From positions 1-64,000 of the IMG/VR virus record IMGVR_UViG_3300025575_000001: a stretch of DNA of 64,000 nucleotides; one strand, given 5' to 3'. Shown here in pieces: positions 30,718 to 58,412 of this stretch. Source of the DNA: a virus (taxonomy: Duplodnaviria; Caudoviricetes). The position numbers were made by a program, and so were the translations under genes. Position 1 is the first letter of the stretch; every line of letters starts with the position of its first letter. The notes below the pieces were generated by a model. The model had not been told where the DNA came from. It saw only the letters and a list, made by a program, of their open reading frames with translations, and did no database searches.

Positions 30718-31257
30718 TTACTATAATAAATTATTTACAATTGTGTTAAGAAACAATTTAGTTTCAATATCTGTTAATTCACCTTTCATGTAATTAATAG
30801 ATGTTGAAACAAATTGTACATTTCCTTTAACATAACCTTTAGAAGAATCGATTCTATCTAAAGATGCTCTTATTGTAGGATGAATAGTATTTTTATATGT
30901 CGGTAATTCTAATTTTATTTTGGTATAAGGACAAATACCTTGCTATTCTTCCCATAAATCTTTTAAATATTGTAAATCTAAATCAAAATCTTTAAATCTT
31001 CTTTTAGCATTTCTTAATGTATAAGTAAAAGGTACAAATTCTTTTGATTTCATATCATTTATTTTATGAAGATGATCTAAAAGCACTTGTGTAACAATTC
31101 TTTTACAGTTTTGATTACCCCAAGTACGAGCACAACTTCTAGAACAAAAATTATGTTTCTATAAAATAATATTTCTTTTATATTCTGATTCTGGTTTTAT
31201 AAAGTCTTTTTCACAATAATCACAAATACAATTAACCATTGTTCTACCTTTTTTCAT
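30718..31257 (-). CDS. Free-standing HNH-type homing endonuclease, TAG=Gln; absent from ORF track
   Basis: CDYC..FCSRSC Zn finger; LWEE[TAG]QGICPY..ASLDRIDSSKGYVKGNVQFV..NYMK. Confidence 0.85.
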
Positions 31258-31659
31258 AAATTTTTAATTTAAATTTATACAAAAATACAATAAATATTTA
31301 ATAAAAACAATACTATAAATAAAATATTAAGGTCTAATTACAATATTAGTAATTTGCCTACAGCTCCACAATTGATTACTACTACTGTAGCGAACTAAAC
31401 AGTACAATCTGGTAAAGCTAATCCTATCCACTAGGTCATTTTTGAGTCAGATTAGTAGTCAATTTTAATTAATTAAACAAGTTAAAACTTTAGATTTTAT
31501 GAATAAAAAATTAGAAAAAATTGTTAAAAAGACTTCATTCATAGCAATGAAAGTTATCCCTAAATGTCCCAGATGTGAAAACACTTGGGATGGATTTGGA
31601 TGTCATAAATGTAATTATAAACCAGAGGATGAAGAAACATCAATCCCTTTTCCTCACTG

Positions 31660-32150
31660 AAATCAAATTTAAAATTCCTGAAGTATGATTTTAAAAATAG
31701 TACATTACAAATATGTAAATATTATTTACAGAATTCGTTAATTATTAATTTATTATTTCAAACCCAATAGGCATCTTTGACTGTACTGAATTATTTAAGC
31801 ATAGTATAAATTTAATTAGTAATAATTAAAAGAACTGCTATTAATCAATAATTCTATAGGAGAAGGAGACTGGGAGAAACGTTTAGGGGAGAATAATGTA
31901 TTAAGCAGCTAAAACTTGATCTGCAAAAAAGATGGTTCCTTTAGTAATAAAGGTTATTACAGGTAAAGATAAAATTAATTAATTAGTGAGCATCGCGCTT
32001 CGACATTTAATTAACGGCTCAGTAATGAGGTAGGTAATAAGTGGAAACACAGCACATACATTCGCCTTGAGAAAGCGAGCCTTTTCATATGGGTTAAATT
32101 GTATGATAGAGTTCTCAGCACGGCCTTAACTAGCAATAGAAAGGCGCTAA
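31660..32150 (+). ncRNA. Putative large structured ncRNA
   Basis: No credible ORF; six GNRA-capped hairpins and long-range pairing 31761-31772 with 32079-32095. Confidence 0.55.
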
Positions 32151-32152
32151 AT

Positions 32153-54756: not shown

Positions 54757-55792
54757 AAAAAGTATCAAAGATTTAGCTTGGGATGTTACTGAAGACATTT
54801 ATAGAGCATCCCCAGCTCTTTCTTATTCCACATTAGCCACTTTTGAAAGAGAAGGGGCTAAATGTATTCCTACTCTACGAGATAAAAAAACATCTGAACC
54901 ACTTAGGTATGGATCTCTTGTAGATACATTAATGACGGCTCCTGAAGAAATGGAAGATAAGTTCTACATTGCTCAAATAAGTAAACCATCTGAAGCCATT
55001 GCTTCAATTGCTAATTTAGTTTGGGAGCAAAGTGATAAATCAATTAAAACCTTAGCACAATTTCCACAAGAAACCCTTTTAAAAATTGCAAATGATCTCA
55101 GTTATGGCATGTTTTGGAAAGAAGCCACTCGATTAGATAAAATCATAGGAGAAGGTTCTACTTATTTCAAACAACTCGCATTAGCAGGTAACAAAATGAT
55201 AGTTTCAGATGCTGATTATGCATTAGCTCAATCAAATATTGAAACACTTAAACTTCACAAATTTACAAAAGATTTATTCTACGATAATCCATTTGAAACA
55301 GATATTGAAGCCCACTATCAATTGAAATTTAAAACTTCATTTGAGGGATTAGAAGTACGCATGATGGCAGATAGGATAATTTGCGATCACGCAAGAAAAA
55401 TCATTTATCCAATTGATTTAAAAACTACAGGCAAGCCAGAAGAGCATTTTGATGAATCCTTCGTAACTTGGTCTTATTGGATACAAAGTAATATGTACTC
55501 CCAAATTCTTGAGAAACTAATCTCTGAAGATGAATACTTCAAAGATTTTACAGTTTACTCATTTGAATTTGTATGTATCAATCGTTATGCCAAATCTCCC
55601 CTCATTTGGGTAGACCACAATAACTTGATTACAGGAGATAGATTAGACAATAATGGAATTCGCCATAAGCATTGGAAAACCCTCGCAAAGGAGCTTAAAT
55701 GGCATTTAGATAGCGGTATTTACAACTACTCATATGATTCAATGATGAATAACGGAGTAAGAGTACTAAACAGTATAAAAATTATACAATGA
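54749..55792 (+). CDS. PD-(D/E)xK exonuclease (RecE/Exo VIII-like)
   Basis: LSYS, GSLVD, D..IDLKTT, YWIQ..MY. Confidence 0.8.
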   Translation: MIKKSIKDLAWDVTEDIYRASPALSYSTLATFEREGAKCIPTLRDKKTSEPLRYGSLVDTLMTAPEEMEDKFYIAQISKPSEAIASIANLVWEQSDKSIKTLAQFPQETLLKIANDLSYGMFWKEATRLDKIIGEGSTYFKQLALAGNKMIVSDADYALAQSNIETLKLHKFTKDLFYDNPFETDIEAHYQLKFKTSFEGLEVRMMADRIICDHARKIIYPIDLKTTGKPEEHFDESFVTWSYWIQSNMYSQILEKLISEDEYFKDFTVYSFEFVCINRYAKSPLIWVDHNNLITGDRLDNNGIRHKHWKTLAKELKWHLDSGIYNYSYDSMMNNGVRVLNSIKIIQ

Positions 55793-57485
55793 CACAAGAA
55801 CTATTGAATTATTTCAATGGAGATACAATGGCTTCCCAAGTTTGGTGGGATAAATATGCTTTACAGGATACAGAAGTAACTCCTGATGATATGCATAAAC
55901 GTTTGGCTAAGGAATATGCTCGAATAGAGGTTAAATATTGTCGATTACCAGAAGAAGATTTTCATTATGAAAAATTGTCTGAATATGGTAAAACTAGAGC
56001 AGATTATCATAGTGCTGTAGGGCAAATGACTGAAAATCCAAAGGATTTAGCTGCATTATCATATGTAGAGCAATTTGAAAAAGATATTTATAACCTATTC
56101 AAAGATTTCAAATACATCATTCCCGCAGGTTCAGTAATGGCCAATTTAGGTAAAGACACGCCAACCAGTTTAAGCAATTGCTTTGTTTTAGGTCAACCTA
56201 AGGATAATATTGAAAGTATATTTAATTATTCTAGAGATTCTGCACAACTATTTAAACGTAGAGGTGGAGTAGGAATTGATTTGTCTCTCCTTCGCCCTAA
56301 TGGAGCTGGAGTTAAGAATGCATCAAATAGTTCTACAGGACCTATATCTTTTATGAATATATATGATGCAACTACTAAAACGATTGGACAAGATGGTAGA
56401 AGAGCTGCATTAATGCTTTCATTAGATATTAGACATCCAGATTCACCTGAATTTGTTAGATGTAAGGAGGATAAATCTAAAATTACAGCCGCTAATATTT
56501 CATTAAAAATTGGTAAAGATTTTATGGAAGCGGTTGCTAAGGATGAAGATTTTATTCTTAGGTTTCCTGTAGAACAAGATTTATCTTATTTTTCAGAAAA
56601 TTATTTGGAATGTCCTTATAATACAATGATTTATTTAGAAGACCATAAAAGAAATAATGAAGTTTTCTATATCAAAAGAATTAAAGCAAAAGAACTTTGG
56701 AACAGTATTTGTCAACATGCTCATGATGATGCAGAACCAGGGATTATATTTGAAGATAACCATCTTGAATATGATCCTGCCGCAGTATACCCTGATTATA
56801 AACCAGTTACAACCAATCCATGTGGTGAAATCTTCATGGGTCCAAAGGACTCTTGTCGACTAAGTGCAATCAATTTATATTCATTTGTAGATCAACCCTT
56901 TAGTAAAACTCCATCAATTGATTTTGAAAAACTCTACGAAGTCTCATATGAACAATTAGTTCTATCAGATGATTTAGTAGATTTAGAAATTGAAGCAATT
57001 GATAGGATTTTAGATAAGATTAATCCTACTTATTTGAATGAATTTGTAAGATATAATGAAGTTGCAAAACATCTATTTACGAAACAACAATCAGAGGAAT
57101 TCAAGCTCTGGTGGGAAATTAGGGAAAACGGTAGAAAAGGTAGACGAGTAGGTAATGGTTTTACAGCTCTTGGAGATATGATTGCAGCAATGAATTTGAA
57201 ATATGGTTCTGATGAATCATTAGAATTAATTCAATCTGTTTTACATACAAAAATGCAAGCAGAATTAGATGCTTCTATTGATTTAGCTATTCTTAGAGGT
57301 TCTTTTGATGGATTTAATCCAGATTTAGAATATATTTCTACTCAAAAGATGGGGGGTGTATCTATTTCAGGAACAAATACATTCTATGATACAATCTATC
57401 AAATGTTCCTAACACAAGTAGATAGAATGCGTCAATATGGAAGGAGAAATATTTCAATTTCAACTGTTGCTCCAACGGGTACCGT
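55789..57485 (+). CDS. nrdJ: Class II (B12-dependent) ribonucleotide reductase, exon 1
   Basis: SLSNCFV, RRGGVG, TNPCGEI, SCRL, TVAPTGT. Confidence 0.9.
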
Positions 57486-58412
57486 AAACAACCTTGCGGC
57501 ATAATAAAGTAATTTATTATGAGAATCGGATGAATTGCTGGAAAGCTAAAATTAATTAAATTATTTATTTAAACACTAGGAATTGTCGATTATTTATTGT
57601 ACCTTTGCGGAATTGAACCCGTAAAAATTAAAAAAATGAGTAAAAGAAAACATTTTCCTATTGTTGGAACAAGATTTGGAGAATTTACAGTTATTGATGA
57701 AGAACTTGTAAAATCTAAAGATGCAAAAATACTTTATCATGTAAAGTGTTCTTGTGGAAAAGAACAATTTGTCAGAGCTTATTTCTTAGAAGTAGGTAGA
57801 CAAACTTGTTGTAAAGAATGTAGAAGTAAAATAAATTATGAAAAAGCGATAAAAAATGGAACTAGTATTGGTTTTATAAAATTACACCATGAAGGTATTG
57901 GTAATTTTACAAAAACAGCATATAATCATTTTAAAAGAAATGCTAAAAGAAGAGATATAGAGTGGTCTAAAGATTTAACTCTTGAGTTCTTATATAATTT
58001 ATTATTAAATCAAAATAGAAAATGTGCTCTTTCTGGTGTAGATATTGATCTAACCGAGTTTAGAAAGGGTAGTAATGTAAATTTTGAATTTATGACTGCA
58101 TCTTTAGATAGAATTGATTCTTCTAAAGACTATAACCCAACAAATGTTCAATGGGTACACAAAGATGTAAATAGAATGAAATGGGCACTTGACCAAGACT
58201 ATTTTATTTAGATGTGTGCTAAAATAATTAATCATGCTAATCAGCAGCCAAGTTAGGAATAAATTCCTAAACGGTTCAGAGACTACCTGAGCAGTAAATC
58301 TGCTTAATAACAGGAAGTAGTATAGTTTAGTCACTATATGAAAAAGAGTCCGATACCCTAGTAATAGGGTAGTGATATAGTCCACACTTATATGAAAATA
58401 TAAGATAATGTG
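57486..58412 (+). mobile_element. Group I intron in nrdJ with sense HNH endonuclease
   Basis: P1 CCGT/GCGG. Core motifs GAATTGCTGGAA, AATCAGCAG, GTTCAGAGACTA and GATATAGTCC; terminal G at 58412. Splicing restores APTGTVSLLTQTTSGIEP. Confidence 0.9.
57636..58262 (+). CDS. Intron-encoded HNH-type homing endonuclease, TAG=Gln near C-terminus
   Basis: CSCG..CKEC; QNRKCALSG..ASLDRIDSSK..NVQWVHKDVNRMK. Reading through TAG 58209 gives DYFIQMCAKI, ending at TAA 58260. Confidence 0.8.

Follow-up and report, generated by a model that had tools for sequence, protein, structure and literature searches.

Three genes for predicted homing endonucleases, lying in the early arm of the genome of a gut-type, crAss-like phage, carry in-frame TAG codons, and the question raised by this locus is why they are written in a code that their neighbours do not use. 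The stretch of DNA analyzed here (hereafter the window) is the first 64 kb, or 64,000 nucleotides, of the complete 98,996-bp IMG/VR record IMGVR_UViG_3300025575_000001, with direct terminal repeats and a G+C content of 32%; the genome encodes a portal and a large terminase (TerL) of the crAss-like type. HNH1 (30718-31257, minus strand, 179 codons) is a free-standing gene for an HNH-like homing endonuclease. HNH2 (48051-48785, minus strand, 244 codons) encodes a helix-turn-helix (HTH) plus HNH-like protein and lies antisense within an intron of a glutamine amidotransferase gene, and HNH3 (57636-58262, plus strand, 208 codons) encodes a zinc-finger plus HNH-like protein and lies in sense orientation within an intron of the gene for the large subunit of ribonucleotide reductase. 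We consider it likely that these are three intact endonuclease genes, written in the code of the late genes, dependent on the suppressor transfer RNA (tRNA) of the phage and delayed in their expression. An earlier note on this DNA had drawn attention to the TAG codons and had gone further, holding that these mobile genes use the code switch of their host phage as a timing and safety lock.

The layout of the genome provides an internal control. The plus-strand arm, from approximately 20.4 to 65.3 kb, contains the genes for replication and nucleotide metabolism (the early arm), and the minus-strand arm, from 65.3 to 99 kb together with 0-19.6 kb, contains the virion and lysis genes (the late arm). 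Read with the standard code, the minus arm falls into fragments, and long frames emerge once TAG is read as a sense codon: there are 294 TAGs across 35 open reading frames (ORFs) of the late arm, including 20 in the portal gene, 17 in TerL and 10 in a spanin-like gene, with a maximum of 53 per gene. In the early arm, no genuine internal TAG was found in the 63 plus-strand ORFs (11,830 codons). The three TAG codons in this ORF set are all artefacts of the ORF ends: one is upstream of an alternative start, and the other two are probably true stops, each backed up by a further stop 2-6 codons on. The ORFs at 25300-25587 and 45872-46195 (both plus strand) appear to be TAG-terminated, with a TGA or TAA 2 and 6 codons later, and these back-up stops would limit extension under late TAG suppression.

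A suppressor tRNA gene with anticodon CUA is located at 17730-17803 (minus strand), in the TAG-free head of the late arm and downstream of the gene at 17812-18204; a host-type promoter box, TTTACTTATCTTTG, is found at 18229-18242 (minus strand) ahead of the gene that precedes tRNA(CUA). To assign a meaning to TAG, the 20 TAG columns of the portal were compared with four standard-code portals of 71-75% identity: Gln occupies 43 of the 80 cells, with Glu next at 16, and because these columns are mostly Gln in the standard-code relatives we take TAG to be read as Gln. A phage-encoded tRNA(CUA), late genes interrupted by TAG with the TAGs at Gln columns, and an early arm free of TAG together define the phage as TAG-to-Gln recoded (code 15-like), with a partition between an early and a late code.

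HNH1, HNH2 and HNH3 are the only early-arm genes with a genuine internal TAG. In HNH1 the internal TAGs are codons 33 (31159-31161) and 105 (30943-30945); codon 179 (30721-30723) is a terminal TAG with TAA directly after it, and is ambiguous between stop and sense. HNH2 has a single TAG at codon 29 (48699-48701), within the HTH, and no terminal TAG. In HNH3 the internal TAG is codon 192 (58209-58211), just ahead of the near-invariant Cys194, and a further TAG at codon 207 (58254-58256) is ambiguous, since two orthologs have CAA (Gln) at this position and another has a TAA stop. TAG is significantly commoner in the endonuclease genes than in the early genes (Fisher p = 1e-6, or 2e-4 when the four internal TAGs only are counted), and the ratio of TAG to CAG is 6:2 in the endonuclease genes, 294:49 in the late genes and 0:39 in the early genes. 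The TAG codons and coordinates are exactly as the earlier note had placed them; it was also right that nothing else in the plus arm needs internal TAG readthrough, and that a motif (ASxDRIDxxKxY..N in its notation, AS[LI]DRID..K.Y...N in our alignments) is common to all three proteins. Its description of these as all three homing endonucleases is fair, as a search of the whole genome with Pfam models (GIY-YIG, LAGLIDADG_3, HNH and HNH_3) and with profiles of the three families revealed no further homing endonuclease gene. Under code 11, gene callers shorten HNH2 and HNH3 (P0124 and P0243).

If TAG is read as Gln, the three genes are intact. Every in-frame stop in them is TAG, and there is no TAA, TGA or frameshift; TAG makes up just 14-16% of the random single-base nonsense outcomes in these ORFs, and four out of four by chance has P ~4-6e-4. 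All invariant residues of the three family alignments are retained, and in HNH1 this means 30/30 family-invariant columns, most of them downstream of both TAGs. The column of HNH1 codon 105 is Q in 119/119 homologs, as anticipated in the earlier note, which had also named TAG columns incompatible with Gln as the mark of decaying pseudogenes; the TAGs proved Gln-compatible, with the qualification that the column of HNH1 codon 33 is Gly in 101/119 homologs. The column of HNH2 codon 29 is variable, Q being the commonest residue, and that of HNH3 codon 192 holds E, N, D, K or Q among homologs, with CAA (Gln) in the ortholog from the related genome G009. The same mixture of Q and non-Q characterizes the TAG columns of the portal.

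Further evidence comes from a sister lineage, sampled through two 1-kb contigs (L267 and L268) of one sequencing run (SRR30681606). L267 contains the intron plus HNH2 at 90% nucleotide identity; the TAG at codon 29 is retained, and a second TAG, at codon 76, replaces what is a Gln codon in the window phage. L268 contains a relative of HNH1, adjoining a transfer-messenger RNA (tmRNA) gene, which has a TAG at both of the HNH1 TAG columns and an N-terminal half that is very different. The ratio of non-synonymous to synonymous substitution rates (dN/dS) is 0.22 for HNH2 codons 30-244 against the L267 copy and 0.16 for HNH1 codons 106-176 against the L268 copy, each at a dS of 0.3-0.4. For HNH3, the codons just past TAG192, including that for Cys194, vary in DNA with the residues kept, and the last 23 nucleotides (AAT CAT GCT AAT CAG CAG CCA AG) are invariant and conserved as nucleotides, because the ORF overlaps the ribozyme core of the intron. 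Downstream of their TAGs the genes are under purifying selection.

Each gene is also preceded by a promoter-like box. Boxes of the form TAnnTTT[G/A] are found at 31280-31287, 48802-48809 and 57600-57607, just upstream of each gene, in agreement with the earlier note; the bare TAnnTTTG, however, is not enriched, occurring in the window at chance level (96 found against 102 expected), and it is an extended 14-mer that is exclusive to the three genes. This element, TTATTGTAnnTTT[AG], has exactly three copies in the 99-kb genome, against ~0.3 expected from an estimate based on base composition, and each lies 17-29 nt ahead of an endonuclease start: TTATTGTATTTTTG at 31280-31293 (minus strand), 23 nt upstream of HNH1; TTATTGTATCTTTA at 48802-48815 (minus strand), 17 nt upstream of HNH2, in the intron and on its antisense strand; and TTATTGTACCTTTG at 57594-57607 (plus strand), 29 nt upstream of HNH3. 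A AAATTAAAAA-type leader follows these boxes. When the spacing is taken into account the short form becomes more telling: TAnnTTTG is found 17-31 nt upstream of the start in 7/116 ORFs, namely HNH1, HNH3 and five late-arm genes, among them portal, TerL and the gene that immediately precedes the suppressor tRNA, and in no early-arm gene other than HNH1 and HNH3. The late-arm boxes have the form TTTACYTAnnTTTG. They make up a second promoter-like class, with copies at 18229-18242, 10805-10818 and 1256-1269 (all minus strand) that lie 23-31 nt upstream of the gene preceding the suppressor tRNA, the portal, and the late gene 95-1225, respectively.

The box of the endonuclease genes is often found ahead of their relatives too (L024, L088, L002, L093, L003, L096, L114, the G009 ortholog, L267 and L268); the nearest relatives of HNH2 have TTGTAnnTTTG 21-32 nt upstream, and the G009 ortholog of HNH3 has TATATTTG at a similar distance. 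In the Cellulophaga phage phi14:2, which is also crAss-like, it is the virion RNA polymerase that transcribes the early arm and the host RNA polymerase that transcribes the middle and late genes, from sigma-70-type promoters, which are often also found ahead of tRNA genes (bioRxiv 10.1101/2020.03.07.982082). By analogy, the endonuclease genes would belong to the host-polymerase class, with the boxes as their putative promoters.

These observations can be joined in a single explanation, the one that we consider likely. HNH1-3 would be written in the late code, unlike every other early-arm gene, and the one or two internal TAGs per gene would be read as Gln by the phage tRNA(CUA). The Bacteroidota-type -7 box TTATTGTAnnTTT[AG] that precedes each gene would be recognized by the host RNA polymerase and would place them in the middle/late class, and tRNA(CUA), in the TAG-free head of the late arm, would be expressed from behind a similar host-type promoter. 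Full-length endonuclease would appear only once tRNA(CUA) is present, so that production would be confined to the middle or late phase of infection, and the genes would be dead on arrival in a standard-code phage. Dependence of full-length translation on the suppressor is well supported, as a predicted consequence of the sequence; we infer the timing, by way of the function of the boxes as promoters and the moment at which the tRNA would appear.

Assignment of the proteins to a nuclease family is looser. HNH1 matched PHROG 3322 (E 2e-23), 1035 and 3118, and across HNH1-3 the matches are to the endonuclease, endonuclease VII and HNH families of PHROG, at E 1e-13 to 2e-26. Among curated HNH models there was no match to Pfam HNH (PF01844), to HNH_3 (PF13392) or to NCBIfam. 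In the DRID motif, D134-R135 is invariant, placing an Arg where a canonical HNH has its general-base His, at the end of the first strand, and the DH motif is absent; N146 and N155 are invariant in the family. An AlphaFold2 (AF2) model of HNH1, with a predicted local distance difference test score (pLDDT) of 89.6, places two strands (130-135 and 147-151) ahead of a helix (152-156), as a possible beta-beta-alpha-metal fold, and its fold matches are mostly HNH nucleases, at a Z of just 3.6-6.2: PacI (6.2), Gme HNH (5.6), Cas9 HNH (~4) and T4 endonuclease VII (3.6). The best of these, PacI (PDB 3ldy), aligns over 103 residues with a root-mean-square deviation of 5.6 Å and a Foldseek probability of 0.97; there is no detectable sequence similarity between PacI and HNH1, the Z is middling, and a common fold does not establish common chemistry. 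A Foldseek search of the HNH1 model against the PDB gave no match at E <= 0.001, and in a profile search of solved structures alignment A3 matched nothing and alignment A1 matched the N-terminal zinc finger only. We therefore refer to HNH1-3 as one divergent superfamily, HNH-like (His-Me finger) and only loosely "HNH," with a predicted nuclease activity that is assumed. Their residence is that of homing elements: HNH2 and HNH3 sit in introns, and relatives of HNH1 sit beside group I intron cores.

Two of the three genes reside in predicted group I introns, one of them antisense, a circumstance that had escaped the earlier note although its three-gene observation stood. The amidotransferase gene (class I, Peptidase_C26-like) has its exon 1 at 47700-47961 (plus strand; PF07722 positions 51-114, E 1.2e-8), which ends in ...GVCRG with the catalytic Cys, and its exon 2, SQLLTVLNGG..., at 48956-49323 (plus strand; phrog_7218, E 4e-12). 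Between them lies a 994-nt intron at 47962-48955 (plus strand; Rfam Intron_gpI 40.9 bits, E 1.4e-8), with GUGGGU/GGCCCAC as P1 and GUUCAACGACUA and GAUAUAGUC as P7 elements. Exon 1 ends in a U (47961) within P1, the terminal G of the intron is at 48955, and it is exactly here that similarity to an intron of phage cr116_1 ends. The intron is inserted right after the catalytic GVCRG, giving a predicted spliced junction GVCRG-S-QLL. HNH2 runs in the opposite direction to both the intron and the amidotransferase gene, and this arrangement recurs in contig L088, where the same site is occupied. The split gene is clustered at 46180-50195 (plus strand) with an ATP-grasp (RimK-like) protein and a phiEco32-like COOH-NH2 ligase, in what looks like a peptide or amide ligation module.

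The reductase large subunit has its exon 1 at 55789-57485 (plus strand; PF02867 positions 1-391), ending in ...STVAPTGT(V), and its exon 2, (V)SLLTQTTSGIEP..., at 58413-59427 (plus strand; PF02867 positions 393-523). The intron of 927 nt at 57486-58412 (plus strand) has its ribozyme core at 58181-58404 (Rfam Intron_gpI 29.8 bits, E 2.7e-5), and the 3' end of HNH3 overlaps this core. Exon 1 ends in a U (57485) and a CCGU/GCGG P1 is possible; the terminal G of the intron is at 58412. The frame of exon 2, read from 58414, starts at position 393 of PF02867, so the junction is seamless, and the spliced product would read APTGT-V-SLLTQTTSGIEP. The stretch 58270-58346 has 90% identity to an intron-like stretch of phi14:2, and orthologous introns with HNH3-type endonuclease genes are found at the same reductase site in L166-L169. 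Both RF00028 scores, 40.9 and 29.8 bits, are under the gathering threshold of 50, the internal ORFs breaking the model; read from the sequence, both introns have the group I hallmarks of a U at the 5' exon end in P1 and a terminal G, and removal of either restores a continuous conserved host gene. No further introns were detected in an Rfam scan of the whole window at E <= 0.01. In G009, reductase exon 1 has a second interruption of ~930 nt near residue 340 (38059-38993, L169:8312-9246), which is probably another intron.

HNH1 has a different setting. Thirteen nucleotides separate its 3' end from that of a phage tmRNA gene at 30222-30705 (plus strand), a full-length match of 484 nt to Rfam RF00023 (65.8 bits, gathering 47) that was missed by ARAGORN. 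No group I core was found beside HNH1 at E <= 1, and the tmRNA of the window phage is uninterrupted. In five other phages, relatives of HNH1 lie antisense and adjoin group I cores of 84-98 bits. Two of these, the closest standard-code relatives (L010:10527-11192 and L027:10482-11146, both minus strand), have the HNH1 homolog antisense beside a group I intron (86 bits) inserted after GACGAGGGTT in the T-loop of the tmRNA; a pattern search found no 3' tmRNA exon in either, and their tmRNA may be split differently or dead. Near the HNH1 homolog of a recoded relative, G003, contig L018 has matches, all above gathering and all on the minus strand, to RAGATH-20 (10817-10919), RAGATH-9 (11839-11993) and Hatchet (13622-13748) ribozymes. 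Elsewhere in the early arm of the window there are weak or atypical tRNA-like genes at 24853-24926, 26501-26571 and 27513-27583 (plus strand; Rfam 29-48 bits), for which ARAGORN gives Trp(CCA) and Glu(CTC), with the anticodons at position 33.

Whether TAG in these genes is a general feature of the family was addressed by a survey of related phages, as the earlier note had suggested. We classified 35 related virus records by the stops read through in their portal genes; a classification by coding density in 20-kb loci was dropped as too noisy. Seven TAG-recoded crAss-like genomes have a homolog (G002, G003, G004, G009, G022, G023 and G024), and none of the seven homologs contains an internal TAG; the homolog in G003 has a TAG at its penultimate codon. 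The nearest recoded relative, G009 (portal 68% identical), has a TAG-free endonuclease gene at the same reductase intron site. The TAG and TGA codons seen in IMG/VR homologs are almost all terminal stops or upstream of the start, the genuine internal stops being one TAG in L190 and three TGAs in L123. The latter, L123:11407-12253 (plus strand), is an HNH3-family gene from a TGA-recoded phage, with its TGAs at columns 17, 173 and 180 of the window protein. Preferential recoding of the endonuclease family across the clade was not found, the sister lineage from SRR30681606 alone having internal TAG, and the amber-bearing endonuclease genes are therefore a trait of this lineage and not of the family.

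Several of these results weigh against a tightly gated set of endonucleases. The absence of internal TAG from the seven recoded homologs means that the gate is not general; for the three of those genomes that were retrieved in full, late coding of the genes predicts 7.3 TAGs, against no more than 1 seen. In HNH2, in-frame restarts (GTG at 48572, Met85) could yield a protein that lacks the HTH but retains the nuclease domain; in HNH3, a stop at codon 192 would remove the last 17 residues, including Cys194, and leave the catalytic motif intact, and conservation past that codon partly reflects the ribozyme core and not the protein. Finally, the invariant Arg in place of the general-base His and the lack of a Pfam HNH match leave nuclease activity as an assumption. 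Homing endonuclease genes often degenerate once fixed, and the three genes could be decaying pseudogenes past their homing phase, with the TAGs as ordinary nonsense mutations; the Gly that prevails at the column of HNH1 codon 33 and the shortened calls for HNH2 and HNH3 would fit such decay. We reject this reading, to which we give almost no credence, on the basis of the stop-type statistics (P ~5e-4 for four of four TAG, with no other lesion), the complete set of invariant residues, a dN/dS of 0.16-0.22 past the TAGs, and the same TAG positions in diverged copies; a mixture of Q and non-Q columns is likewise found in the portal gene. Could the products instead be regulatory DNA- or RNA-binding proteins, maturase-like or akin to the Srd sigma-factor decoys, whose TAGs reflect a late regulatory role? 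The substitution in DRID, the unmatched Pfam models, fold matches at a Z of only 4-6, and the presence of "Srd anti-sigma factor" and "decoy of host sigma70" among the PHROG matches all point in that direction. The top PHROG matches, however, are endonuclease families (3322, 1035 endonuclease VII and 3118 HNH), the list of folds is dominated by PacI, Gme HNH, Cas9 HNH and T4 endonuclease VII, and the genes reside in group I introns at conserved sites, with relatives that carry different homologs at different sites, a hallmark of homing elements; a non-nuclease role is accordingly very unlikely.

Granted functional endonuclease genes, the TAGs may have been positively selected, as a translational timer and safety device that ties the element to recoded phages, or they may simply have been tolerated. 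Selection would account for a TAG in 3/3 endonuclease genes and in 0/63 of their neighbours, for the location of the TAGs upstream of the nuclease domain in HNH1 and HNH2, for their conserved positions in the sister lineage and for a dedicated promoter motif common to the three genes, and it has a precedent in Agate phages, in which one intron endonuclease family shows preferential recoding (Borges et al., bioRxiv 10.1101/2021.08.26.457843). Yet the other recoded genomes, including the orthologous nrdA-intron gene of G009, lack internal TAG; at a nucleotide identity of 85-90%, common descent is enough to explain why the TAGs are retained; and the gate itself is uneven, being predicted to be absolute in HNH1, where no start after codon 105 could yield the nuclease domain, partial in HNH2, and weak in HNH3, where the TAG is close to the C-terminus and gates poorly. 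The ratio of TAG to CAG equals that of the late genes, as neutral drift predicts, and the additional TAG of L267 at a Gln codon suggests drift that is ongoing; both fit AT-biased drift from CAG to TAG in TAG-tolerant genes, that is, in genes dispensable before the suppressor appears. Tolerance of TAG in turn implies that the genes act only with the suppressor present, and does not require selection for a lock. We therefore favour tolerance and regard an adaptive lock as unlikely; it seems equally doubtful that the three genes form a dedicated regulatory class in this lineage, for which selection has assembled a portable cassette from the TTATTGTAnnTTTR promoter, a short leader of AAATTAAAAA and amber codons that precede the nuclease domain. 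Were it true, selfish endonucleases would exploit the code switch in two ways, for timing and as an obstacle to their spread into standard-code competitors, and late transcription of the antisense intron gene could also interfere with its host gene. What survives of the lock put forward in the earlier note are thus its Gln-compatible TAGs, the purifying selection and a promoter-like motif of the genes' own, and what finds no support is that it evolved as a lock. The corollary that the genes would be non-functional in a standard-code phage is consistent with HNH1, which would yield no nuclease domain at all, and is too strong for HNH2 and HNH3, which would be leaky.

The genome offers a clean and internally controlled code partition, three genes against 63, that extends down to single mobile elements within early genes, and this lends support to the view, already in print, that phages time translation by recoding a stop codon. 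The same intron-endonuclease units exist with TAG, in the window phage and its sister lineage, and without it, in G009, G007 and G008, and a comparison of the two sorts could separate an adaptive gate from permissive drift. For crAss-like phages, the exclusive promoter motif and the conserved antisense intron gene can serve as annotation rules, given that code-11 gene callers now shorten or miss such endonuclease genes.

The setting of these genes has close counterparts in phage T4, where early genes of nucleotide metabolism, ribonucleotide reductase genes among them, contain group I introns that encode I-TevI, I-TevII and I-TevIII; these enzymes are delayed to the middle or late phase by their own promoters together with hairpins that hide the ribosome-binding site (RBS) on early transcripts. 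The block differs, RNA hairpins over the RBS in T4 against suppressor-dependent decoding as it would operate in the window phage, and so do the enzymes, those of T4 being GIY-YIG or canonical HNH proteins and those of the window phage a DRID variant outside Pfam. A group I intron in the T-loop of tmRNA is known from a case in Clostridium botulinum; L010 and L027 have one after GAGGGUU with the HNH1 homolog adjoining, whereas the tmRNA of the window phage is uninterrupted.

With the recoded crAss-like and Lak phages, in which recoding has been proposed as a regulator of late expression (Borges et al., bioRxiv 10.1101/2021.08.26.457843; Zeta crAss-like review, PMC12386605), the window phage shares a TAG-free early arm, a TAG-rich arm of structural and lysis genes and a phage suppressor tRNA. 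In crAss-like phages, the genes reported as recoded are the spanin, the tail tube and one family of unknown function, and not homing endonucleases (bioRxiv 10.1101/2021.08.26.457843; PMC12386605). The closest parallel is in the TGA-recoded Agate phages, where an early gene harbours a group I intron whose endonuclease is preferentially recoded, and where the authors expect the in-frame stops to hold back the enzyme until late infection (Borges et al., bioRxiv 10.1101/2021.08.26.457843). The core of the timing idea is thus already published, and the inference of the earlier note is its transfer to a TAG-recoded crAss-like phage; the homolog with three TGAs in L123 also parallels the Agate case. 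HNH2 and HNH3 have both the placement in an intron of an early gene and the in-frame recoded stops of the Agate endonuclease. The systems differ in that the TAG-recoded crAss-like genomes show no clade-wide enrichment, their homologs being TAG-free, in that the window phage reads TAG as Gln and Agate phages read TGA as Trp, and in that the window phage has three such genes, a free-standing and an antisense one among them, with a promoter motif exclusive to them.

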